Part shown: positions 1,896 through 16,768 of the stretch, one piece after another
How positions within the stretch are numbered: position 1 is the stretch's first letter
Layout: each line of letters opens with the position of its first letter
NCBI GenBank assembly: GCA_039715015.1
Contig: JBDLIE010000051.1
Location: 1-19,143, forward strand
DNA length: 19,143 nt
DNA from: Thermodesulfobacteriota bacterium
Lineage (GTDB): Bacteria > Desulfobacterota > Desulfobulbia > Desulfobulbales > SURF-16
Direction: 5' to 3'
Notes under the pieces: model-generated
Databases searched by the model: none
What the model was told of the DNA's origin: nothing
What the model saw: only the letters and a program-made list of their open reading frames with translations
Made by a program: the position numbers and the translations under genes

Positions 1896-2717
1896 TTATT
1901 TCTGACATTGTGGACAGAAGAAGGTGGCGCGGCCGGCTATGGTTTGCTTTTTAATAATGCCCGGACATTTTTTGCATCTTTCACCTGCCCGGCCATAGAC
2001 GGCAAGTTCCAGCTGAAAATAGCCGGGCTTGCCTGAGGCGTTGAGATAATCGCTGATGGTGGTGCCGCCGCTTTTAATGGCCTGGGCCAGAACGCCTTTG
2101 CTTTTATCAACGATGGCTTGCCAGTGCGCCAGGTTGAGGGAACCGATGGGCATGGTGGGGTGGATGCCCGCTGCAAAAAGGATTTCATTGGCGTAGATAT
2201 TGCCGATTCCCACCACAACCTGGCTGTCCATCAGAAAATTCTTTACTGGTTGGAGTCTCTTGCCAGCCCTCTTTTTTAGATATTCAGCGTTAAAGTCTTC
2301 CCAGAAAGGTTCCGGGCCTAATTTGGCCAAGGGATCAGTCTGGGCAGAGACCATATCCTGGACAACCACAAAGCCAAAACGCCTGGTGTCGTTATAACGC
2401 ATCTCCATGCCGTCATCGAAAGAGAAGAGAAGGTGATCGTGGAGGGCTTGGGGCGCTTGGGCAGGGAAGATGCCGAGACGGCCGGTCATGCCCAGGTGGA
2501 TCAGGAGGCGACAGCCACTATCCATCTCAAAGAGGAGATATTTGGCCCGTCTACTCAAGTTTTTTATTCGCGCGCCGCAGATTTTTTCCTGCAGGTCAGC
2601 CCGGGGTATGGTCAGTCGTAATTCTTTTGGGCCACAGAAGATCTCTTTGATAAGGCGACCTTCGACATGGGGTTTGAGGCCCTGGCAGATCACCTCCACC
2701 TCTGGTAATTCCGGCAT
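1896..2717 (-). CDS. mutM: formamidopyrimidine-DNA glycosylase (Fpg/MutM)
   Basis: The N-terminal MPELPEVE carries the catalytic Pro2/Glu3. An H2TH region is present (NIYANEILFAAGIHP). The C-terminal zinc finger is CKKCPG...FFCPQCQK. The length is 273 aa. Confidence 0.95.
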   Translation of the reverse strand: MPELPEVEVICQGLKPHVEGRLIKEIFCGPKELRLTIPRADLQEKICGARIKNLSRRAKYLLFEMDSGCRLLIHLGMTGRLGIFPAQAPQALHDHLLFSFDDGMEMRYNDTRRFGFVVVQDMVSAQTDPLAKLGPEPFWEDFNAEYLKKRAGKRLQPVKNFLMDSQVVVGIGNIYANEILFAAGIHPTMPIGSLNLAHWQAIVDKSKGVLAQAIKSGGTTISDYLNASGKPGYFQLELAVYGRAGERCKKCPGIIKKQTIAGRATFFCPQCQK

Positions 2718-2857: not shown

Positions 2858-3256
2858 TTACTTCTTCTCCATCATTCGTAGTTCGAGCTTCAGGGCATGT
2901 TCGGAGATGAGAATCTCCTGAAAGGCGAGGGCCAAGGAGGCCAGCATCAGCGTCAGGCTGAGCCCGAAGATAATCTTGCCCACTGAAAGCACGCCAAGAA
3001 AAAGAAAGGTTATACAGAGAACGCAGCAAAAAAGGGCTGCTACCCCGCAGAGCTGCATATTGCGGATCAGAAAAACCCGGCGGCGGAGAATGGTGATCTG
3101 TTCGGCAACCACCTCGTCGGCCACCTCTTGATAGAGCGAGTGGAGGCTGCGGATTCGCTTGCTTAAGGCAACAAAGCGATTGGTATAGGCAACCAGGAGC
3201 AGGGATACTGCGGGGAAAAAAAGAGCAGGGGTTGTGAGCGTGATTTCGTAGGGCAT
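2858..3256 (-). CDS. small three-TM membrane protein, DUF2721-like
   Basis: The 132-aa protein has a hydrophobic N-terminal segment followed by NRFVALSKRIRSL. A central amphipathic helix ends in LRRRVFLIRN, and two further TM segments follow. This layout matches my recollection of DUF2721 (PF11026). It lies 72 nt downstream of the tri-domain gene, in the same direction. Confidence 0.6.
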   Translation of the reverse strand: MPYEITLTTPALFFPAVSLLLVAYTNRFVALSKRIRSLHSLYQEVADEVVAEQITILRRRVFLIRNMQLCGVAALFCCVLCITFLFLGVLSVGKIIFGLSLTLMLASLALAFQEILISEHALKLELRMMEKK

Positions 3257-3328: not shown

Positions 3329-6300
3329 TTATATTCGCAGGAACTGCAGTTGGGCAGTTTCCTGCCTATCTCTAGATTCCCAGAGCAGACACTGTTTACG
3401 AAGGCACTCCCGGTTGTCACGGTGCTGGCTGCAGGCCAGGCTGGCATCAGCTGCCAGCTTTGTGCCGAGGAACTCTTCAGAGAGAGCGGCAACCTCGCGC
3501 AGGGCCACATAGGTTTCGCGCTGACAACAGCGGCCCGCCTTTATTTCAGCAATTTCAGCAAGAACACGGGCTGTGGCGCTTTGGGCCATCTGACGGGCTT
3601 TAGGGGTGAGAGGTGTGGCGTCAAAAAGAACGGCAAAGGCAATGCCCACGCCGGTGGCTGCCCCGCAGCTCCCTAGAAAACCGCAGGCTCCACCCGGAAC
3701 CTTGGAGCCCCGTTCAATACCGGTGAGGATATCGCCACTCCCAATGGCAAGACCGCTGTTGCGGGCTGTGGCCAGGATGATCCCCGGAAGCATGGCATGG
3801 TGTTCCGGACCATGCATGGGAATGGCATGCTGGGCCCTGATCTCTTCAAGCAGCGAGATCATATCTGCATCCTTGCTGTTCAGGCAGATTTGTCTGATGA
3901 TGGCCAAGCCTTCCTTCTGGTGACATTGGTCGCAGACAAAATGGCCGTCAGGGCACCTGATATTGGCCCGGAATTCCTGGCCGCAATAATGACAACCAGC
4001 CTTCACCGCTTTGCTGTTATAGGAAAGGGTGTTGCCGCAGACCATGCAGTCCTGTTCCAGTTTTGCCTGATTATCCTCTTGGCCGCAGCAGGGCTCAGCC
4101 GCCTTTTCATCGCAGCAACCTGTCTGCTCAGGTGGCGTCGTGCAGCAGGAATCACCAAGGCTGGCCAGAGGCTGGGGCGCCGCCCCCCAAGGCGACTTCG
4201 TGCCGGGCGTGCAGCAGGAAGAAATCATCTCCATATTGGTCACTGTGCCTGTATCATCGACAATAAACACTGAGTCACCCAAGGCCTGGACATCAGGGTG
4301 AGGAAGGCGGGTACGTTTGCCCTTAAGGAGCAGGTGGCCGTTTTCGGTATGGACAGCGGCGAAGGGGCCCCGATAGATGACCTCCACCTCCTTAATGGCG
4401 GCTGGTTTCCAGGCCCGAAAGGTCAGGGAGTAAAACTGGGCGTCCTCGACCTTGCGGTAGGGAAAACGTTTGACAAGTTCCATGGCGGTGAAGCCGGAGG
4501 CGCGCAGCATGGCCATCAGGTCCTCTTGGAGCATGGCGCCGCCCAGGCACTCACCACGAAACTGCTCGTCATTTTTGATGGTGGTGGGGATGGCTTCATC
4601 GGTGACAATGTCAGAGACCACCAGCCTGCCGCCTGGCTTTAAAACGCGGAGCACCTCTTGGAAGGTTTGACGTTTATCAGGGCTGAGGTTAATCACGCAG
4701 TTGGAGATCACTGCATCGGCACAGCCGTCCGGCAGGGGAATCTCCTCCAAAAACCCTTTTTTAAACTGGACATTGGCATAGCCCAGCCGCGCTGCCACCT
4801 CGTCAACTGAGCCACGGGCCAGCTCCAGCATGGCATCGGTCATATCAATACCATATACCTGGCCATCTTCACCCACTCTCTCGGCAGCCATGAAACACTC
4901 AACGCCGCTGCCGCTGCCCAGGTCAATCAGGGTTTCGCCGCTCACTGGCGCTGCATCCTGCACAGGGCTGCCGCAGCCGTAGGAACGCTTTTTAGCCACC
5001 TCAGGAATGAAATCAGCGTCCGCCTGGCCATCTGCAAAAGGATTAACGATATCCTTGTTGGCAGCCTGGGCGGCCTGACCGTAAAACTCGCGTACCGAGG
5101 CATGACCATCGGCCAGGGCCACCACACAGTTACAATGGGTCAGGGTGACAGATTTGCCGTCCGGACAGTCATAGCGCACGTCTCCCATCTTCAGGGCCAG
5201 CTCGGGCCTATGGGGATCAGGATAGGCCTTGGCCTGTTTACCAATAAGCCATAAAGCCACCCCGTTATAAAGCGCCACATAGGGGTCATGACCGCTGAAT
5301 TGGCCAGCGGCCAGATAGGAGTGGTCGATATCACCGCCACCAATCAGAAATTTGAGGGGGTTTTGATCATAGCTGCTGCCCTGTAGGGTGGCATGGCGAA
5401 TGGTGTCCAGCACTGGGCTGGTACGCCACACATCCTCCAGGCCCTGCTCCAGACTGCCGCAATCAAGTTCGGGCACTGCCACCAGGGCCGGTGAAGGGTA
5501 GATATGCCCGTCCGGCCCTACAGCCATTGATTCCCAGCCGGCATTGCTAAGGTCAAAACGAGTGCCAGGGGTGGCAAAAACCTGGGCCCGCAGGGTCTCT
5601 ATATTGTCGATACTTACCCCCAGACTTTGTGCCTCCTCTTGGGCGGTAAGAAGCTGAGGCAGAATCTCGGCCGGGGCCACATGCTGCTCTTGGCTGCCCT
5701 TGCCACGCTGAAAATGCCAGAGAAAATGAACAGAGTTGCCGCGCTTTGCCGCCAGGCGGACAATTTTCACCATATCAGCAAGATTGTTGCGACAGACCAC
5801 CATGGAGATGGTGGCCGAGAAACCCGCCTCTGCCACTTTGTCGAGGTTAGTCATCAACCATTTGAAGGCACCTTTGCCGCGAATTTGGTCATGACTCTCC
5901 TGCAGGCCGTCGACACTGATCTGAAAATGAAGACGCGACGGATCCACATCGGCAAGGGCGGCCAGATGTTTTTCAAGAAGCAGGCCGTTAGTGAGCACCA
6001 CAACATGGTTCTCCGGTTCAGCCAGAAGATTTTTGATGATATTGCTGAAATCAGGATAGATAAAGGGTTCGCCGCCGGTAAAAAAGAAGAGGCGGCAGCC
6101 TAAGGAGCGAGCCTGGGCCAGAGCGCTATCGAGTTCTTGCCGAGGCAGGCTTTCCCGGCAGGCCGGTCCGGCAGCAAAGAGGCAATGCTCGCAGCTGAGG
6201 TTGCAATGGTTGGTGATATGAAACCAGCACTCCTTCAGCTCTTCCATCTCTATGTGTTCGGCCCGGCCTTGGTAATTGGAAGCCGTGGGCCTGCAGAGCT

Positions 6301-6469
6301 GGGAATAGAGAGAGTGCTCGGCCAGGCTCTGCGGCGGGTTGCCGGCAAGAAGATGGTCAATAATGGGTTCGGCTTCAGGGGTGGCCACCAGCCAATCAGG
6401 CCTGTCTGGGAGAACATAAACCGGGATGGACAAGGTGTCGAGACGCTGCCAAGTTGGAAGAGGAGTCAT
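3329..6469 (-). CDS. tri-domain protein: radical-SAM domain + ArsM-type As(III) SAM-methyltransferase domain + CC-rich linker + C-terminal zinc-ribbon/HGPEHH (DUF5714-like) domain
   Basis: It is one uninterrupted ORF. The radical-SAM motif CNLSCEHC lies at 6182-6205, with GGEPFIYPDF downstream. The methyltransferase motif I is LIDLGSGSGVEC. ArsM-type cysteines sit in YGCGSP (Cys codon 4973-4975), ISNCVINL (4697-4699) and GECLGGA (4547-4549), spaced 92 and 50 residues apart. The linker has four CC pairs (4078-4222). The C-terminal region has CMVCG..CHYCG..CPDGHFVCDQCH, HGPEHH and GGACGFLGSCGAA. The start is taken as the ATG at 6469 (MTPLPTWQRL...); the ORF stays open upstream to 6565. Confidence 0.85.
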   Translation of the reverse strand: MTPLPTWQRLDTLSIPVYVLPDRPDWLVATPEAEPIIDHLLAGNPPQSLAEHSLYSQLCRPTASNYQGRAEHIEMEELKECWFHITNHCNLSCEHCLFAAGPACRESLPRQELDSALAQARSLGCRLFFFTGGEPFIYPDFSNIIKNLLAEPENHVVVLTNGLLLEKHLAALADVDPSRLHFQISVDGLQESHDQIRGKGAFKWLMTNLDKVAEAGFSATISMVVCRNNLADMVKIVRLAAKRGNSVHFLWHFQRGKGSQEQHVAPAEILPQLLTAQEEAQSLGVSIDNIETLRAQVFATPGTRFDLSNAGWESMAVGPDGHIYPSPALVAVPELDCGSLEQGLEDVWRTSPVLDTIRHATLQGSSYDQNPLKFLIGGGDIDHSYLAAGQFSGHDPYVALYNGVALWLIGKQAKAYPDPHRPELALKMGDVRYDCPDGKSVTLTHCNCVVALADGHASVREFYGQAAQAANKDIVNPFADGQADADFIPEVAKKRSYGCGSPVQDAAPVSGETLIDLGSGSGVECFMAAERVGEDGQVYGIDMTDAMLELARGSVDEVAARLGYANVQFKKGFLEEIPLPDGCADAVISNCVINLSPDKRQTFQEVLRVLKPGGRLVVSDIVTDEAIPTTIKNDEQFRGECLGGAMLQEDLMAMLRASGFTAMELVKRFPYRKVEDAQFYSLTFRAWKPAAIKEVEVIYRGPFAAVHTENGHLLLKGKRTRLPHPDVQALGDSVFIVDDTGTVTNMEMISSCCTPGTKSPWGAAPQPLASLGDSCCTTPPEQTGCCDEKAAEPCCGQEDNQAKLEQDCMVCGNTLSYNSKAVKAGCHYCGQEFRANIRCPDGHFVCDQCHQKEGLAIIRQICLNSKDADMISLLEEIRAQHAIPMHGPEHHAMLPGIILATARNSGLAIGSGDILTGIERGSKVPGGACGFLGSCGAATGVGIAFAVLFDATPLTPKARQMAQSATARVLAEIAEIKAGRCCQRETYVALREVAALSEEFLGTKLAADASLACSQHRDNRECLRKQCLLWESRDRQETAQLQFLRI

Positions 6470-6751
6470 AAACCTAATTAGTTTTTGAAATAAAACACAG
6501 GGACACAGAGTGCGGACAGGTAAGAGTTTTTCTGTGGGCTCTGTGGTGTGAAAAAACAGTTTCATACTTTTTTATATCCCACCAGTGCTGAAGGACAAGG
6601 ATTTATTTAAAGATGTGATGAATTTACAAGGGGGAAGAGAAGGGAAAAGAAGCTTTTATTCCCTTGTAATGCAACTTCCTTGTTATTTCTAACTCCTTTA
6701 TCTTCTACTACTGCCATGGTATGTTGCCTCTTCAAAAAATTGAGGATAACC

Positions 6752-7450
6752 ATGCGTTCATATGAAAGAAATAATAACGAGTTGCGCCCGGTAAGCATTG
6801 AGCGGGGTTTTCAGCCCGGCGCCGATGCCTCGGTGCTGATAAAAATGGGTAATACCCATGTGAGCTGCGCTGTCACCATCGAAGAGAAGGTGCCGCCTTT
6901 TTTGCGCGATACCGGTAAGGGCTGGATCACTGCCGAATACGGTATGCTGCCCTGTTCCACCAATAGCCGGATGCAGCGCGAGGCGGCCCGGGGTCGTTCC
7001 GGCCGCACCTACGAGATCCAGCGCCTCATCGGCCGGGCCCTGCGGATGATGGTGGATCTGGACACCATTGGCGAGCGAACCTTACGCGTTGACTGCGACG
7101 TGATTAATGCCGATGGCGGCACCCGCACCGCCTCCATCACCGGTGCGGCTCTGGCCATGAAAGATGCCTTTGCCAAGCTGGATGAGACCGGGACCTTGGC
7201 CATGCCGGAGCTCACCCCAGTGGCTGCCATCAGTGTTGGTGTCGTTGAAGGCGAGGCCAGATTGGACCTTGACTATGTTGAAGATTCCAGCGCCGAGGCG
7301 GATGCCAATTTTGTGATGACCGGGGACGGCCGGATTATAGAGGCCCAGTCCACGGCCGAGGGTCAGCCCTTTAGCCGCACCCAGTTTGATCAGCTCCTTG
7401 ATCTGGCTGAAAAGGGCGTGGCAGAGCTGCTGGAGTTGTGGCAGCAATAG
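6752..7450 (+). CDS. rph: ribonuclease PH
   Basis: [20 protein letters not shown]..., [29 protein letters not shown] and [19 protein letters not shown] align closely with E. coli RNase PH. GAGGA lies at 6742-6746, upstream of the ATG at 6752. Confidence 0.95.
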
Positions 7451-7455
7451 GTTAT

Positions 7456-7480
7456 GGAGGAGCCCGGCCCTCCGGGCGAT
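7456..7480. repeat. single arm of the GTAGGAGC REP-like family
   Basis: TGGAGGAGCCCGGCCCTCCGGGCGAT has the same layout as the left arm at 2743-2768, with a compensatory change in the inner stem (GCCCGG..CCGGGC versus GCCCAC..GTGGGC). The following spacer (GACTGTAATTTCAT) resembles the spacer at 2779-2793 (GACAGTAAAATTCAT). Confidence 0.7.
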
Positions 7481-7502
7481 TATAAGACTGTAATTTCATG
7501 CT

Positions 7503-7630
7503 CTAGGAGCAGCCCATGGGCATTCGAAGTCTTCGCTTATCTCCTTTGGGGGCACCAGTCCGCCGGCAGTGAAGAGCTTTTTTCTGTTTCGGGCACGTCC
7601 CCTATCGCTCACAGGGGTGAGCTCCTACGG
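7503..7630. repeat. MITE/REP-like element, ~128 bp, with TAGGAGC...GCTCCTACGG inverted ends
   Basis: It starts with CTAGGAGCAGCCCATGGGCATTCGAAGTCTTCGCTTATCTCCT and ends with TATCGCTCACAGGGGTGAGCTCCTACGG. It shares its ends and the 23-nt core TTCGAAGTCTTCGCTTATCTCCT with the element at 11793-11902. Confidence 0.8.
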
Positions 7631-7646
7631 CGTACGTAAGAGTTCC

Positions 7647-7672
7647 GTCATTCCCGCCTCTGCTGGAATGAC
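7647..7672. repeat. short hairpin GTCATTCC-N10-GGAATGAC
   Basis: It has a perfect 8-bp stem and a 10-nt loop, directly after the repeat element. Its function is unknown. Confidence 0.6.
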
Positions 7673-7728
7673 TTGAACAAAAAAACGGCAAAATTCAACA
7701 TTCGAAATTCAAGCTTTTAACAGTATAA

Positions 7729-8841
<1,113 letters not shown>

Positions 8842-13165: not shown

Positions 13166-14479
13166 TTAAGGGGCGAGAACCCCGATCAGTGCATCAAGAA
13201 ACAGGGCCCGGCCGATCACAAAAAGGACAATGGACAGGATGGCGGCAATGGGCACCGTGATAAACCAGGAGCCGAAGATATTACGGGTAACATCGCGGTC
13301 AATACCGCCGAAACCTCGGGCCAGGCCGATGCCCATGATGGCACCCACCAGGGTGTGGGTGGTTGAAACCGGCAGGGCCATCCTGGTGCAGATCAGGACC
13401 GTGGCTGTGGCGGCAATATCAGCAGCCACCCCGCGCGAGGGAGTAATCTCGGTGATCTTGGTGCCCACTGTGGTCATGACCTTATGGCCATAGCTGGCAA
13501 GGCCAAGGACTATGCCACCACCGCCCAGGCAGAGAACCCAGGTGGGAACCCCCACCTTCATGCTGACATCGCCGGTCTGGAGAATATTGACAATGGCGGC
13601 AAAGGGGCCCACTGCATTGGCCACGTCATTGGCGCCGTGGGCAAAGGCCACCGAACAGGAGCTGATGATGACCAGAGGTACGAAAACCGACTCCACGGCC
13701 TCAAGCTGTTTGGAGATGGGCAAGTCCTTCTTGTCCTGGAGCTTGGCCTTAACATAAAACCGTGAGACAACGGCGCTGAAAAGAGCCAGGCCCACGGCTA
13801 TCACCAGCGACATATCGTCGGTGAGCCAGGTGATATTGCCGATAACATGCTTGAGCCCTTTATAGATCGTGGCCAGGCAAACAACAAAGATAAGGAGAAA
13901 GACGATGGCCGGGGTGTAGATAATGGCGGCCCGGGCCGGTCGGGTGCGGCCCAGGATATGGCGAGAGATAAATTTAAAGAGGATAAAGGCGCAGGCTCCG
14001 CCGACAACGGGCGAGATAAACCAGGAGGCGACAATCTGACTCATTTTAACCCAGTTCACGGCCTCAACACCGGCGGCGATAATGCCGAAACCTGCCACGG
14101 CGCCGACAATGGAATGGGTGGTGGAGACCGGCATAGCGATCATTGTCGCCACATTAAGCCAGATAGCGGCGCAGAGCAGGGCGGCAGCCATGCCGATGAC
14201 AATGATGGCCGCGGCCTCGCCCTCGCGCAGGCCCGGCAGATTGATAATCATGGAGGGGTCGACGATCCCCTTGCGCACTGTATTGGTGACATGGGAGCCA
14301 ACCAGGACGGCGCCGGCAAATTCGCAGAGGCCGGCCAGAATAACCGCCTGCTTGATACTGAGCGCCTTTGAGCCCACGGCATCTGCCATGGAGTTGGCCA
14401 CATCATTGGCACCAATGTTCCAGGCCATGTACAGGCCGATGACGGCTGTTACCCCGATGATAAAAATGGTTATATCCAT
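13166..14479 (-). CDS. pit: inorganic phosphate transporter, PiT family
   Basis: The duplicated PiT signature GANDVANS/GANDVANA occurs in both halves (WNIGANDVANSMA and AHGANDVANAVGP), with about 10-12 hydrophobic segments. The start is taken as ATG 14479 (MDITIFIIG...). The track's longer ORF begins at a TTG (14533), which I consider less likely. Confidence 0.9.
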   Translation of the reverse strand: MDITIFIIGVTAVIGLYMAWNIGANDVANSMADAVGSKALSIKQAVILAGLCEFAGAVLVGSHVTNTVRKGIVDPSMIINLPGLREGEAAAIIVIGMAAALLCAAIWLNVATMIAMPVSTTHSIVGAVAGFGIIAAGVEAVNWVKMSQIVASWFISPVVGGACAFILFKFISRHILGRTRPARAAIIYTPAIVFLLIFVVCLATIYKGLKHVIGNITWLTDDMSLVIAVGLALFSAVVSRFYVKAKLQDKKDLPISKQLEAVESVFVPLVIISSCSVAFAHGANDVANAVGPFAAIVNILQTGDVSMKVGVPTWVLCLGGGGIVLGLASYGHKVMTTVGTKITEITPSRGVAADIAATATVLICTRMALPVSTTHTLVGAIMGIGLARGFGGIDRDVTRNIFGSWFITVPIAAILSIVLFVIGRALFLDALIGVLAP

Positions 14480-14569
14480 ATAAAACAAAGGCTGAACACT
14501 CTCTCCCAAGGTGATCAACCCTCCTCCCTTCAAAAAATTAAAACAGATGGTCGGTTGCAGGCCGGACTT

Positions 14570-15247
14570 CTATTTATGAATCATGGCCCTTAAAAAGTCC
14601 CCGGCATTTTCCGCCTCATTGGCAATGGCGGAGAGTTTGAGCAGCATCTTTTCATAGAACATGATGTCGATGGGACTCACCTGGTCCTCTAGCTCGTAGA
14701 TGGCTTTGGAAAGTTTGCGGGCCAGTTTGTCGGCCTTCCACTCTTCCTCGCCCAAGGTGTTCGTGAGCTCAAGAACCATCCGTGCCTCAGCACCGGAAAA
14801 GGAGACCTCTGCCAGGTTCTTGAATTCTACTGCCGCGGTGAGCAGGGTGCCGCTGACCTGAAAAATCTGGGTAACAAAGTCCATGAATTTTTCATGGAGG
14901 TCCGGATGCAGCCTGGTTTTGCGGATCGTCAGAATAACAGAAACATCTTCGGCGTAGTCGGCCATTTTTTCCTGGCATTGCAGGAAACCGTCAAGCTCCT
15001 CCCGGTTCACCGGCAGGAAATAACGGCGGGGCAGATGATCGCGGATATCGTGTTTGAGCTGGTCCGCTTGATACTCCGTTTTCGATACCCGGTACTGGAG
15101 CTCTTCAAGCCACTCCCAATCCTCGGCAATGAGGGCCTCGATCATGGGCTTTACAAGCTCTACACACTCGTGCACCTTGCGGGCATGGTCAACAAGATGA
15201 CCAATGGGGGAGTTCCCCAGTAAGTCTCCAATAATTGTCATGAGCAT
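14570..15247 (-). CDS. DUF47 / TIGR00153 PhoU-like protein (Pit accessory protein)
   Basis: It is a ~225-aa all-helical protein lying immediately upstream of, and co-directional with, the PiT gene; this pairing is well known. AGGAG lies just upstream, and the second ATG (15241) has better spacing than the first. Confidence 0.8.
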   Translation of the reverse strand: MLMTIIGDLLGNSPIGHLVDHARKVHECVELVKPMIEALIAEDWEWLEELQYRVSKTEYQADQLKHDIRDHLPRRYFLPVNREELDGFLQCQEKMADYAEDVSVILTIRKTRLHPDLHEKFMDFVTQIFQVSGTLLTAAVEFKNLAEVSFSGAEARMVLELTNTLGEEEWKADKLARKLSKAIYELEDQVSPIDIMFYEKMLLKLSAIANEAENAGDFLRAMIHK

Positions 15248-15478: not shown

Positions 15479-16768
15479 ATGTATAAAAAAAATTCCCTAA
15501 AAGCCATGAAACGCTCCCATTCCTCGCTGCCACCCTTTGCGGCTTGTCTGCAAATTGATGTTACCTCGCAGCCCGCGGTGAATTTCAAGCAGATACGAGA
15601 GGGCCTTGCCCAGCTTGCTCCGCAGCCTGCTACCCTCATTGTTCTGCCGGAACTGTGGCTGCACGGGTTTGACTATACGAACCTGCAAGAGCAAGCCGGC
15701 CAGACCGCCCACGTTCTTGGTCAGCTGCGTGAATTGGCGGCGGAATACGCAATTGTTCTGGCTGGCTCGCTTCCAGAAGCCGAGCAGGACCAGGTCTTTA
15801 ACACCCTGTTTATCATTAATGAACATGGCGTTGCCGGGCGCTACCGGAAACAGCACCTTTTTAATCCCTTGCAGGAAGATAGCCATTTTAACCCGGCTGA
15901 TAGCTTGGAGATGAAGATGTGTGAAGATGCACGGCTGGGCGGCTTGGTCTGCTATGATCTGCGTTTTCCAGAGCTGGCCCGTATTCAGGTCCAGCAGGGT
16001 GCCGAGGTTCTTGTTGTTTGCGGCCAATGGCCCCAAGCCCGGATCAGCCACTGGCGCCTTCTTCTTCAGGCCCGGGCTGTGGAAAATCAGGTCTTTGTCG
16101 TGGCCTGTAACAGGGTTGGGGAAAGTGGTGAAACCAGTTTCGGTGGCCACTCGATGATTATCGCCCCGGACGGGACCATTCTCCAGGAGGCGGGCGACGA
16201 AAGTCAGGTCATCGGCGCCGATCTGGCTGTGGATATGCCCGGCCAGGTGCGTAGCCGTTTTAATAGCGTTGCGCCAAGGCCTTGGCGTCTGGCTGATAAA
16301 AGCAAATTTGCCGATCTGGCCGCGCTGACCAAAACGGTGAGCATATATAAGGAATGCGGTCAGAAGGTGGTTTTTACCAACGGCTGCTTTGATATCCTCC
16401 ACGAAGGACACGTCACCTACCTGGAGGCGGCCCGTAAGCAGGGCGATCGCCTTATTGTCGGGCTTAACAGTGATTCGTCCATCCAGGCCATCAAGGGACC
16501 TAAGCGGCCCGTGAACAAGGAATCAAGCCGGGCCCGGCTGCTGGCCGGCCTGGGCTGCGTCGACCATATTGTCGTTTTTTCCGATGACACTCCCTTGGAA
16601 CTCATCACCACCCTCATGCCCGATGTCCTGATCAAGGGAGCTGACTGGCCCATTGATCAGATTGTCGGTGCCAAGGAGGTGCAGGCCGCAGGCGGCGAGG
16701 TGAAGACCATCGAGTTTGTCGGGGATTTTTCCACCACTGGTCTTATCGAAAAAATTCGCCAAAAATAA
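15479..16768 (+). CDS. fusion protein: carbon-nitrogen hydrolase (YafV/omega-amidase-like) + RfaE domain II-type D-beta-D-heptose-1-phosphate adenylyltransferase
   Basis: The N-terminal ~270 aa carry the CN-hydrolase Glu-Lys-Cys triad context (LIVLPELW; GRYRKQHLF; [12 protein letters not shown]), plus [23 protein letters not shown]. The C-terminal ~140 aa read [46 protein letters not shown]......LIKGADW...GGEV, which is the HxGH nucleotidyltransferase motif and the HldE C-domain pattern. The start could be 15479 or the ATG at 15506. Confidence 0.8.

Follow-up and report, generated by a model that had tools for sequence, protein, structure and literature searches.

A radical-SAM, ArsM-type methyltransferase and DUF5714 fusion protein of Desulfobulbales as a candidate single-chain organoarsenical-forming enzyme

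Can one protein of strictly anaerobic bacteria both form a carbon–arsenic (C–As) bond and methylate it? This question is raised by a 19,143-nucleotide stretch of DNA (the window; contig JBDLIE010000051.1 of assembly GCA_039715015.1, a Thermodesulfobacteriota bacterium of the Desulfobulbales), in which a single gene on the minus strand encodes a radical S-adenosylmethionine (SAM) domain, an ArsM-type methyltransferase and a cysteine- and histidine-rich C-terminal region. An earlier reading of this gene, made from the sequence alone (the sequence-only reading), had proposed a dedicated anaerobic pathway in which a C–As bond is formed and methylated. To our knowledge, just two radical-SAM enzymes, ArsS and ArsL, so far account for complex organoarsenicals (arsenosugars, arsenolipids and arsinothricin), and the present locus may bear on the question of which organisms and enzymes act on arsenic in anoxic sediments and paddy soils. 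On balance we lean towards the view that, in strictly anaerobic, sulfur-cycling Desulfobulbales, this one protein suffices to form organoarsenicals, the C–As bond being both made and methylated by it; we infer this function from the protein sequence together with the gene context.

The gene lies in one uninterrupted open reading frame (ORF) of 1078 codons at 3329..6565, as the sequence-only reading had stated, and every motif quoted there was found at its place. By scanning the translated ORF against Pfam, Radical_SAM (residues 117–271, 81.9 bits), a class-I methyltransferase (Methyltransf_31, residues 542–689, 118 bits) and DUF5714 (PF18978, residues 890–1061, 189.6 bits for a cut-off of 26.2) were returned in one chain, in agreement with the three domains described earlier. 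An AlphaFold2 model was built from a 58-sequence alignment (mean predicted local distance difference test score (pLDDT) 83, predicted TM-score 0.68), and its confidence was high along the whole chain, the linker excepted. The order of the modules is an N-terminal domain resembling a RiPP-recognition element (RRE), a radical-SAM core, a degenerate SPASM region, an ArsM-type methyltransferase, a linker with vicinal cysteine (CC) pairs, a zinc ribbon and DUF5714 (Table 1). A search of 5.8 billion proteins gave 651 relatives with E < 1e-10, and the conservation counts given for the gene family below are those among the best 120 clusters of these 651, which show 54–82% identity.

The methyltransferase segment is of ArsM type, as judged by its sequence and predicted fold. 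The sequence-only reading had left room for a placement in some non-ArsM family; in a phmmer search of the PDB the solved ArsM chains 5evj and 4fr0 were matched with E ~1e-41, and the top 13 Foldseek matches of the full model were all ArsM or human AS3MT structures (E = 5e-19 to 8e-17, 286–307 columns, 31–33% identity). The three cysteine contexts that had been likened to the As(III) ligands of ArsM were aligned column for column with C72, C174 and C224 of CmArsM; in the fusion protein they are spaced by 92 and 50 residues, and they are invariant in 120/120 homologues and in every architectural variant. The segment opens with VREFYG (residues 491–496) and carries the SAM-binding motif LIDLGSGSG (residues 546–554), together with an extra cysteine, C557, which is also invariant. 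Among NCBIfam profiles, the arsinothricin ArsM model NF040538 scored 174 bits, with an alignment reaching profile position 356/356, and the arsenosugar ArsM model scored 115 bits.

In four-cysteine enzymes, a fourth, N-terminal cysteine (C44 of CmArsM) serves the first methylation. The stretch that separates VREFYG from YGCGSP contains no cysteine; the C44 equivalent is absent, just as had been suspected from the sequence. In distant fused relatives (P0297, P0290) and in the fusions of reversed order, the place of C44 is taken by a CC pair, indicating that the three-cysteine state is confined to a sub-clade. The suggestion that the preferred substrate is an already alkylated arsenical could consequently hold in the three-cysteine sub-clade only and does not extend to the distant fused relatives, which retain the fourth cysteine.

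Ahead of the methyltransferase, the radical-SAM domain looks catalytically competent from its sequence, both CxxxCxxC and GGEP (residues 164–167) being invariant. In the SPASM position, the sequence-only reading had noticed that a usual auxiliary-cluster cysteine seemed to be missing from GPDGHIYPSPAL (residues 350–361 of the ORF). This was borne out (Ser358) and proved to be an understatement: in alignments with PqqE and with SPASM-retaining relatives, every SPASM cysteine is replaced (DLC by DLSNAG, YPC by YPS358, and CxxC...FxCGxGC by ...FLIGGGDIDHS), and the closest SPASM-retaining relatives hold the ancestral cysteines in the replaced columns. The SPASM profile PF13186 scored 16.6 bits, under its cut-off of 21.5. 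As far as these alignments tell, both auxiliary Fe–S sites are lost. At the end of the module, C467, H477 and C480 form a candidate substrate (metalloid) site, the last two within HCNC (residues 477–480); they are kept in radical-SAM-first fusions and in stand-alone relatives, and the reversed-order fusions retain just the terminal H/N-C motif. Conservation of C369 and C478 is limited to Desulfobulbales. A replacement auxiliary [4Fe-4S] cluster on C369, C467, C478 and C480 was considered for the whole clade and rejected, C369 and C478 not being kept in the nearest relatives.

As to its ancestry, the closest folds found by Foldseek for the radical-SAM part were anSME (TM-score on the target 0.71–0.74), PqqE (0.69), and SuiB and SkfB (E = 1e-11 to 1e-12). 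The best NCBIfam profiles were MftC (93 bits) and ScmF (85 bits), followed by NirJ2 and GeoRSP; each of them stayed far under its cut-off, and StsB was matched as well. The ArsS profile TIGR04167 ranked 24th with 56.8 bits for a cut-off of 300, aligned over profile positions 3–152 alone, which agrees with the earlier remark that this part does not look like ArsS; the best score for this profile among the relatives was 76.7 bits. The ArsL family NF040542 was absent from the 25 best NCBIfam matches of the radical-SAM part, and the RCCLKC motif was not found in the ORF. Profile scores and alignment set the radical-SAM part apart from both ArsS and ArsL and place it in a SPASM-derived clade. The N-terminal domain had no Pfam match. 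In the AlphaFold2 model it consists of three beta-strands followed by two helices, its PDW motif (residues 56–58) is invariant, and as modelled it looks like an RRE (PqqD-like).

The Cys/His-rich C-terminal domain of the sequence-only reading was resolved into a zinc ribbon and DUF5714 (189.6–193.2 bits, profile positions 1–172/173), preceded by the CC-pair linker. In the linker the pairs C784/785 and C807/808 are conserved, and C817/818 and C826/827 are variable. All the potential ligands of the zinc-ribbon-like, two-site module are invariant (C840, C843, C858, C861, C871, H875, C878, C881 and H882), and so are C894, HGPEHH (918–923), CGFxGxCGAA (C961, C967), RCCQRE (C1013/1014), C1045, C1054 and C1059 of DUF5714. 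RCCQRE (3524–3541, residues 1012–1017) recalls the RCCLKC tail of ArsL, the RCC part alone being common. No PDB structure was matched by the DUF5714 model in Foldseek with E < 1. Stand-alone proteins of 230–250 amino acids that consist of the zinc ribbon and DUF5714 are widespread, for example in Clostridia; the gene context of one of them (P0230) gave no functional clue. Residues 805–1071 also matched positions 6–275 of the MbdU profile NF045648 (146–150 bits, cut-off 600), and by sequence the CC region, zinc ribbon and DUF5714 share homology with the MbdU N-terminal half. MbdU bears CU motifs where the fusion protein has CC pairs (PMC13188914); the latter contains no selenocysteine, and its ORF has no in-frame UGA.

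Since a C_GCAxxG_C_C protein is encoded by a gene of its own in related operons, and since NCBIfam pairs DVU_1555 (C_GCAxxG_C_C) with DVU_1556 (a methyltransferase), we compared DUF5714 with C_GCAxxG_C_C (PF09719/TIGR01909) by hhalign. The match was weak (20% probability, pairwise E 1e-3), with the CGAxxG and CC motifs aligned at an identical spacing of 46 residues, and a Pfam scan of the fusion protein gave no C_GCAxxG_C_C match. The two families may be analogous; homology is not claimed.

Table 1. Coordinates of the fusion gene, its modules and ligand residues, and two neighbouring genes in the window (residues numbered from the start of the ORF)
Feature	Position	Strand	Basis
Whole gene, M33 to stop (1046 amino acids)	3329..6469	-	Homologues and NCBI protein P0001
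N-terminal domain, residues 33–110	6236..6469	-	AlphaFold2 secondary structure, Foldseek, conservation
Radical-SAM core, residues 111–330	5576..6235	-	PF04055, 81.9–84.5 bits (cut-off 29.5)
CNLSCEHC, [4Fe-4S] motif, C121/C125/C128	6182..6205	-	Kept in 119/120 homologues
Degenerate SPASM-like region, residues 331–490	5096..5575	-	Alignments with PqqE and SPASM-retaining relatives
C467 to H477-C478-N-C480, candidate metalloid-binding site	5126..5167	-	Invariant in 120/120 homologues
ArsM-type methyltransferase, residues 491–780 (SAM-binding, As-binding and ArsM C-terminal domains)	4226..5095	-	PDB, Foldseek, NCBIfam
C531 (YGCGSP), aligned with CmArsM C72	4973..4975	-	Alignment; invariant
C623 (ISNCVINL), aligned with CmArsM C174	4697..4699	-	Alignment; invariant
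C673 (GECLGGA), aligned with CmArsM C224	4547..4549	-	Alignment; invariant
Disordered linker with vicinal cysteine pairs, residues 781–835	4061..4225	-	pLDDT < 50
Zinc-ribbon-like module, residues 836–888	3902..4060	-	Beta-hairpins, pLDDT > 80
DUF5714 all-alpha domain, residues 889–1065	3371..3901	-	PF18978; pLDDT > 90
Small membrane protein DUF2721, downstream	2858..3256	-	DedA/VTT at the same position in ~20 related loci
fpg, formamidopyrimidine-DNA glycosylase	1896..2717	-	45/81 loci

The three Pfam domains were all present in 119/120 of the best protein clusters, the exception (P0020, 883 amino acids, on a 3.9-kb contig) being without Radical_SAM, and the length was 1012–1110 amino acids in 118/120 (883 and 995 in the other two). 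The start of the gene is probably M33, 32 codons downstream of the ORF start at 6565 that had been assumed in the sequence-only reading, because residues 1–32 are gapped in ~117/120 homologues and the NCBI protein for the same contig (P0001) has 1046 amino acids. The 32 codons ahead of M33 (6470–6565) are in frame and not conserved among the homologues, and both candidate ATGs are preceded by weak Shine–Dalgarno-like sequences. When each GTDB species was represented by one genome, 333 stretches encoding a relative were obtained, and the best 80 of these 333 were full-length or contig-truncated copies of the fusion. Among these 80, the carriers named at family or genus level are all Desulfobulbales (Desulfobulbaceae, Desulfurivibrionaceae and Desulfocapsaceae); cultured or named carriers include Desulfurivibrio alkaliphilus, Desulfurivibrio dismutans, Hydrosulfovibrio ferrireducens and Desulfocapsa sulfexigens, and the gene also lies on the complete chromosome of Thiovibrio sp. 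JS02.

One full-length member with 54% identity (P0117) is labelled as the archaeon Methanococcoides sp. SA1, which could reflect assembly contamination or horizontal transfer; the other named sources are bacterial, mostly Desulfobulbales. NCBI names the members 'DUF5714 domain-containing protein' or 'methyltransferase domain-containing protein', and none of them reaches any curated NCBIfam cut-off. The JGI name '7,8-dihydro-6-hydroxymethylpterin dimethyltransferase' is given to some full-length members, some stand-alone DUF5714 proteins and a stand-alone radical-SAM relative alike (P0069, P0077, P0225, P0229 and P0246); it is without profile support, and we set it aside as probably an artefact of annotation transfer.

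Relatives of the radical-SAM domain were collected in an exhaustive HMMER search of 1.84 billion representative proteins (only 117 matches with E < 1e-30) and typed by domain hidden Markov models built from the family alignment. The majority of the 117 have the order radical SAM, ArsM, zinc ribbon and DUF5714; the others are radical-SAM–ArsM proteins of 776–850 amino acids (one of them in Solidesulfovibrio sp. DCME), ArsM–radical-SAM proteins of reversed order (P0300, P0305 and P0307) and stand-alone radical-SAM proteins. Since the two modules are fused in both orders, they probably act in one pathway, and as sequence evidence of a shared pathway we regard this as strong.

The gene contexts of eight variants, which are not a statistical sample, were then compared. 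In 6/8 of them, clade relatives are adjoined by genes of TIGR04282 and/or TIGR04283, two families that NCBI names 'arsenosugar biosynthesis glycosyltransferase' and that we take to be partner families of ArsS. In the three reversed fusions (L086, L089 and L090), the ArsM–radical-SAM gene is the last of a conserved operon in the order YdjY, DedA/VTT, flippase-like LPG_synthase_TM, C_GCAxxG_C_C, glycosyltransferase family 2 (GT2) and ArsM–radical-SAM; the GT2 belongs to TIGR04283 (240–270 bits for a cut-off of 182), and a CofC/DUF2064 gene upstream in L090 belongs to TIGR04282 (178 bits for a cut-off of 134). The stand-alone relatives (L087/L088, L092 and L093) also adjoin TIGR04282 and/or TIGR04283 genes, with all scores above the cut-offs, in the orders radical SAM, DUF547, DedA, PRK06370-type disulfide oxidoreductase and a fused TIGR04282+TIGR04283 (P0249), C_GCAxxG_C_C, TIGR04283, radical SAM and TIGR04282 (P0291), and radical SAM, TIGR04282, glycerophosphodiester phosphodiesterase (GDPD) and patatin (P0313). 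No ArsS-type gene was found in the transferase-bearing clusters of the clade relatives, indicating that the clade would occupy the position of ArsS.

Some of these contexts deserve a description of their own. In L092 (1611–4062), the stand-alone radical-SAM gene is followed by TIGR04282 and GDPD, and then by a convergent gene for the patatin-like lipase; this context hints at a glycerophospho-lipid end product. Beside members of the clade, genes for DedA/VTT and for an FAD disulfide oxidoreductase of PRK06370/MerA-like type recur as an adjacent pair (L029 5713–7911, L087 10306–12609 and L082 3485–5938). DUF547 directly adjoins the radical-SAM gene in L087/L088 and lies ~5–7 kb off in L029 and L091. 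In L084 (5172–11110), from Solidesulfovibrio sp., the radical-SAM–ArsM gene without DUF5714 is preceded by genes for SxtJ, DUF5989 and a carbamoyltransferase and followed by a convergent TylF-type methyltransferase gene. In L091, a PHO4 gene (6881–7987) lies directly upstream of the radical-SAM–ArsM gene, and DUF547 and DedA genes are found ~7 kb downstream.

Within Desulfobulbales, the operon that bears the transferases is mostly dispersed, with remnants persisting. In a metagenome-assembled genome (MAG) of Desulfocapsa sulfexigens (L077), the three-domain fusion is immediately preceded by a TIGR04282-like and a TIGR04283-like gene, of which the TIGR04283-like one scores 153.7 bits as a partial, frameshifted copy; frame changes occur in both transferase genes (549–1920) of this low-coverage MAG and are either sequencing errors or signs of pseudogenes. 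DedA is partially syntenic and adjoins the fusion in ~23/80 loci, and a disulfide oxidoreductase gene is directly upstream of it in L029, L030, L037 and L044. The window itself contains genes for TPR, GIY-YIG, fpg, DUF2721, RNase PH, tgt, yajC, a U32 peptidase, gpsA, AIRS, PHO4/PhoU_div and groES. The pair of PHO4 (PiT-type) and PhoU_div/DUF47 genes (13166–15247, minus strand) is ~6.6 kb away from the fusion gene. Arsenate is also a substrate of PiT transporters, and this proximity may hint weakly at arsenic uptake, or it may be coincidental. At 15479–16768 on the plus strand, a 429-residue ORF combines a carbon–nitrogen hydrolase with a cytidylyltransferase-like (NadD-type) domain, an unusual pairing.

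The mechanism that we propose for the fusion protein is as follows. Trivalent arsenic would be held by the ArsM domain on C531, C623 and C673 and methylated with SAM, and a second SAM would be reductively cleaved by the radical-SAM domain, whose carbon radical would add to the arsenic lone pair to give the As–C bond. ArsS adenosylates dimethylarsenite, DMAs(III) (PMC13598754), and the radical here would most plausibly be 5'-deoxyadenosyl as in ArsS or, alternatively, 3-amino-3-carboxypropyl as in ArsL. Arsinothricin is made by ArsL and ArsM, and the Cys-rich tail of ArsL binds As(III) (bioRxiv 10.1101/2024.02.01.577332); much like in this tail, the arsenical may be held near C467, H477 and C480. 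Two orders of steps can be envisaged. ArsM may act before radical SAM, an order favoured by the precedent of the arsenosugar pathway and by the four-cysteine relatives; or radical SAM may act before ArsM, as in ArsL/ArsM of arsinothricin, which is mildly favoured in this clade because the fourth cysteine has been lost and the arsinothricin ArsM model fits better. The CC-pair linker might serve as a swinging arm that captures the metalloid and passes it between the sites, and DUF5714, like the separate C_GCAxxG_C_C proteins of the related operons, might be a partner for thiol/disulfide or metalloid handling. At loci that have them, the TIGR04282 and TIGR04283 proteins, the DedA and flippase-like proteins and the PRK06370-type oxidoreductase would serve in the processing, reduction or export of the product.

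By this mechanism the protein would be a functional analogue of ArsM plus ArsS, which is our best reading. The more specific proposal, that it represents a third, evolutionarily independent As–C-forming class of radical-SAM enzymes, SPASM-derived, devoid of both auxiliary clusters and permanently fused with ArsM, and hence a one-protein anaerobic route to arsenosugar or arsenolipid precursors, is one that we hold tentatively, as plausible but short of probable. If it is true, adenosyl- or alkyl-methyl-arsenicals would be formed by this route in Desulfobulbales and in relatives with split or reversed versions, and DUF5714, with C_GCAxxG_C_C by analogy, would be a previously unrecognized metalloid-handling or thiol-relay domain.

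Several observations weigh against an organoarsenical function. The neighbours of the gene in the window are housekeeping genes, and no ars gene, tRNA or Rfam match was found there. Across the 81 Desulfobulbales loci that were clustered, fpg is the sole widely syntenic neighbour (45/81), and it is probably not functionally linked to the fusion. In Desulfobulbales it is the fusion gene that has the look of a vertically inherited core gene, which is atypical for arsenic genes. The NF008823 arsenite methyltransferase profile gave 227.5 bits, under its cut-off of 263, because profile positions 1–35 and 243–272 were unmatched. Two of the eight variant contexts (L084 and L091) are without the transferases, and the word 'arsenosugar' in the names of TIGR04282 and TIGR04283 presumably derives from genomic co-occurrence with ArsS and not from any assay. 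The anaerobic C–As pathway put forward in the sequence-only reading gains independent support from the fusions in both orders and from the transferase contexts, and it is still something that we infer.

The triad, moreover, does not tell As apart from Sb or from other soft metalloids, and the same architecture might serve another such element (Sb, Se, Te, Bi or Hg) in a general anaerobic alkylation or handling of thiophilic elements. Three-cysteine sites are established to bind several of these elements, the C-terminal region is homologous, at 146–150 bits, to MbdU, a 'metal-binding double selenoprotein', and genes for a MerA/PRK06370-like disulfide oxidoreductase and DedA lie near the relatives. 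ArsM-like methyltransferases fused to AhpD, DUF2284 or UXPK-star domains are, in addition, recurrent selenoproteins of anaerobes (PMC13188914). On the other hand, the characterised proteins that share the exact triad and fold are all As(III) methyltransferases, and the transferases associated with the clade belong to the families accompanying ArsS. We consider another element unlikely, although of the alternatives it is the one to which we give the most weight.

In the Foldseek comparison, both the fold of the radical-SAM part and its RRE-like N-terminus are of the peptide-maturase type, which also speaks against arsenic. The protein might thus be a peptide or protein maturase acting on a Cys-rich peptide, possibly its own CC-rich linker, with the ArsM fold repurposed as a thiol or other methyltransferase. 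Its radical-SAM half best matches SkfB, SuiB (461 columns in Foldseek, including the N-terminal RRE that SuiB bears), anSME and PqqE, the top NCBIfam profiles MftC, ScmF and StsB point in the same direction, as do the three beta-strands and two helices predicted for the N-terminus, and ars genes are missing from the window. However, all the auxiliary-cluster cysteines of SPASM are replaced in the clade, the As(III) triad is invariant, and the clade is linked with the ArsS-partner transferases. Furthermore, no conserved small precursor ORF adjoins the gene in the 81 loci among the clustered ORFs, which have at least 90 amino acids, and very short peptides could be missed. A maturase appears to us slightly less probable again than an enzyme of another element.

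A third alternative is the modification of a lipid, glycolipid or cofactor without any metalloid, in a pathway for membrane-lipid head groups, the cysteines being structural or redox-active. DedA, LPG_synthase_TM and GT2 in the reversed-fusion operons (L086, L089 and L090), GDPD and patatin in L092, the CofC-like nucleotidyltransferase and the flippase-like protein as conserved partners, and the core-gene-like distribution in Desulfobulbales would all fit it, but it leaves the exact ArsM ligand triad and the conservation of the ArsM C-terminal domain unexplained. Arsenosugar phospholipids would reconcile the lipid context with the triad, and in that respect this alternative is partly a sub-case of the organoarsenical function; taken without a metalloid, we judge it improbable, below the two alternatives above. 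Finally, an assembly or frameshift artefact joining two or three genes, the possibility by which the sequence-only reading would have fallen and for which the unusual length is the one argument, can be given practically no weight, as the same ORF of 1012–1110 amino acids with the same domains recurs in clusters from independent sources and in all of the best 80 genome loci, including the complete chromosome of Thiovibrio sp. JS02, and the AlphaFold2 model is confident outside the linker.

ArsS and ArsL are already known as radical-SAM enzymes paired with ArsM; what is new here is a third, SPASM-derived lineage without auxiliary clusters, its joining to ArsM in either order and the appended DUF5714 module. 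Our literature search gave nothing on DUF5714 or on the function of TIGR04282/TIGR04283, and for a fusion of radical SAM and ArsM nothing except selenoprotein reviews that list families. If the protein is indeed a C–As synthase, a third enzyme class would be at hand in hundreds of Desulfobulbales species, including cultivable Desulfurivibrio, Desulfocapsa, Hydrosulfovibrio and Thiovibrio; DUF5714, the C_GCAxxG_C_C family and the TIGR04282/TIGR04283 transferases would gain a first functional handle; and a natural single-chain system would be available for the channelling of toxic intermediates between polar and radical SAM sites. If the substrate is not arsenic, a complete ArsM ligand triad would have been reused for other chemistry.

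Compared with known systems, the fusion is closest in its methyltransferase to ArsM and AS3MT (CmArsM 4fr0, CrArsM 5evj and human AS3MT 8xt7), with which it shares the fold over ~300 residues including the C-terminal domain, the SAM motif DLGSGSG, the three ligand cysteines in register and a tail rich in Cys pairs behind the domain. It differs from them in that its ArsM domain sits in a 1046-residue protein outside any ars operon, lacks the C44 equivalent and has the extra invariant C557. In its radical-SAM part, the closest folds and profiles are those of the SPASM/twitch maturases (anSME 4k36–4k39, SuiB 5v1t, SkfB 6efn, PqqE 6c8v and MftC TIGR03962), with a TM-score of up to 0.74 on an anSME target and an RRE-like N-terminal domain as in SuiB; unlike these, it has all the auxiliary-cluster cysteines replaced and reaches no curated cut-off, and no precursor gene was found in the 81 loci. 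The C-terminal part has the CC-pair region, zinc ribbon and DUF5714 in common with MbdU (NF045648) and stand-alone DUF5714 proteins, but it is without selenocysteine, scores far under the 600-bit cut-off of MbdU and is set behind radical SAM and ArsM.

With respect to the two known routes to complex organoarsenicals, ArsS (TIGR04167) is likewise a radical-SAM enzyme working with ArsM, and the same TIGR04282/TIGR04283 partners are found near relatives of the fusion. The homology to ArsS is only generic. The radical-SAM domain of the fusion derives from SPASM maturase-like enzymes, has an RRE-like N-terminus and is joined to ArsM in one chain; the ArsS-type neighbourhood (TIGR04282/TIGR04283 with arsM) is absent from the window and present at L077 and in 6/8 of the contexts of the relatives. 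In the arsinothricin route, radical-SAM formation of the C–As bond by ArsL (NF040542, with its RCCLKC tail) precedes methylation by ArsM, and of these two ArsM models it is the arsinothricin one that the ArsM domain of the fusion fits better (174 bits, against 115 for arsenosugars). It has no RCCLKC tail, which is resembled just by RCCQRE in DUF5714 and by HCNC after the radical-SAM module, and whereas ArsL and ArsM are separate proteins encoded in an ars operon of aerobes, the two activities are here fused.

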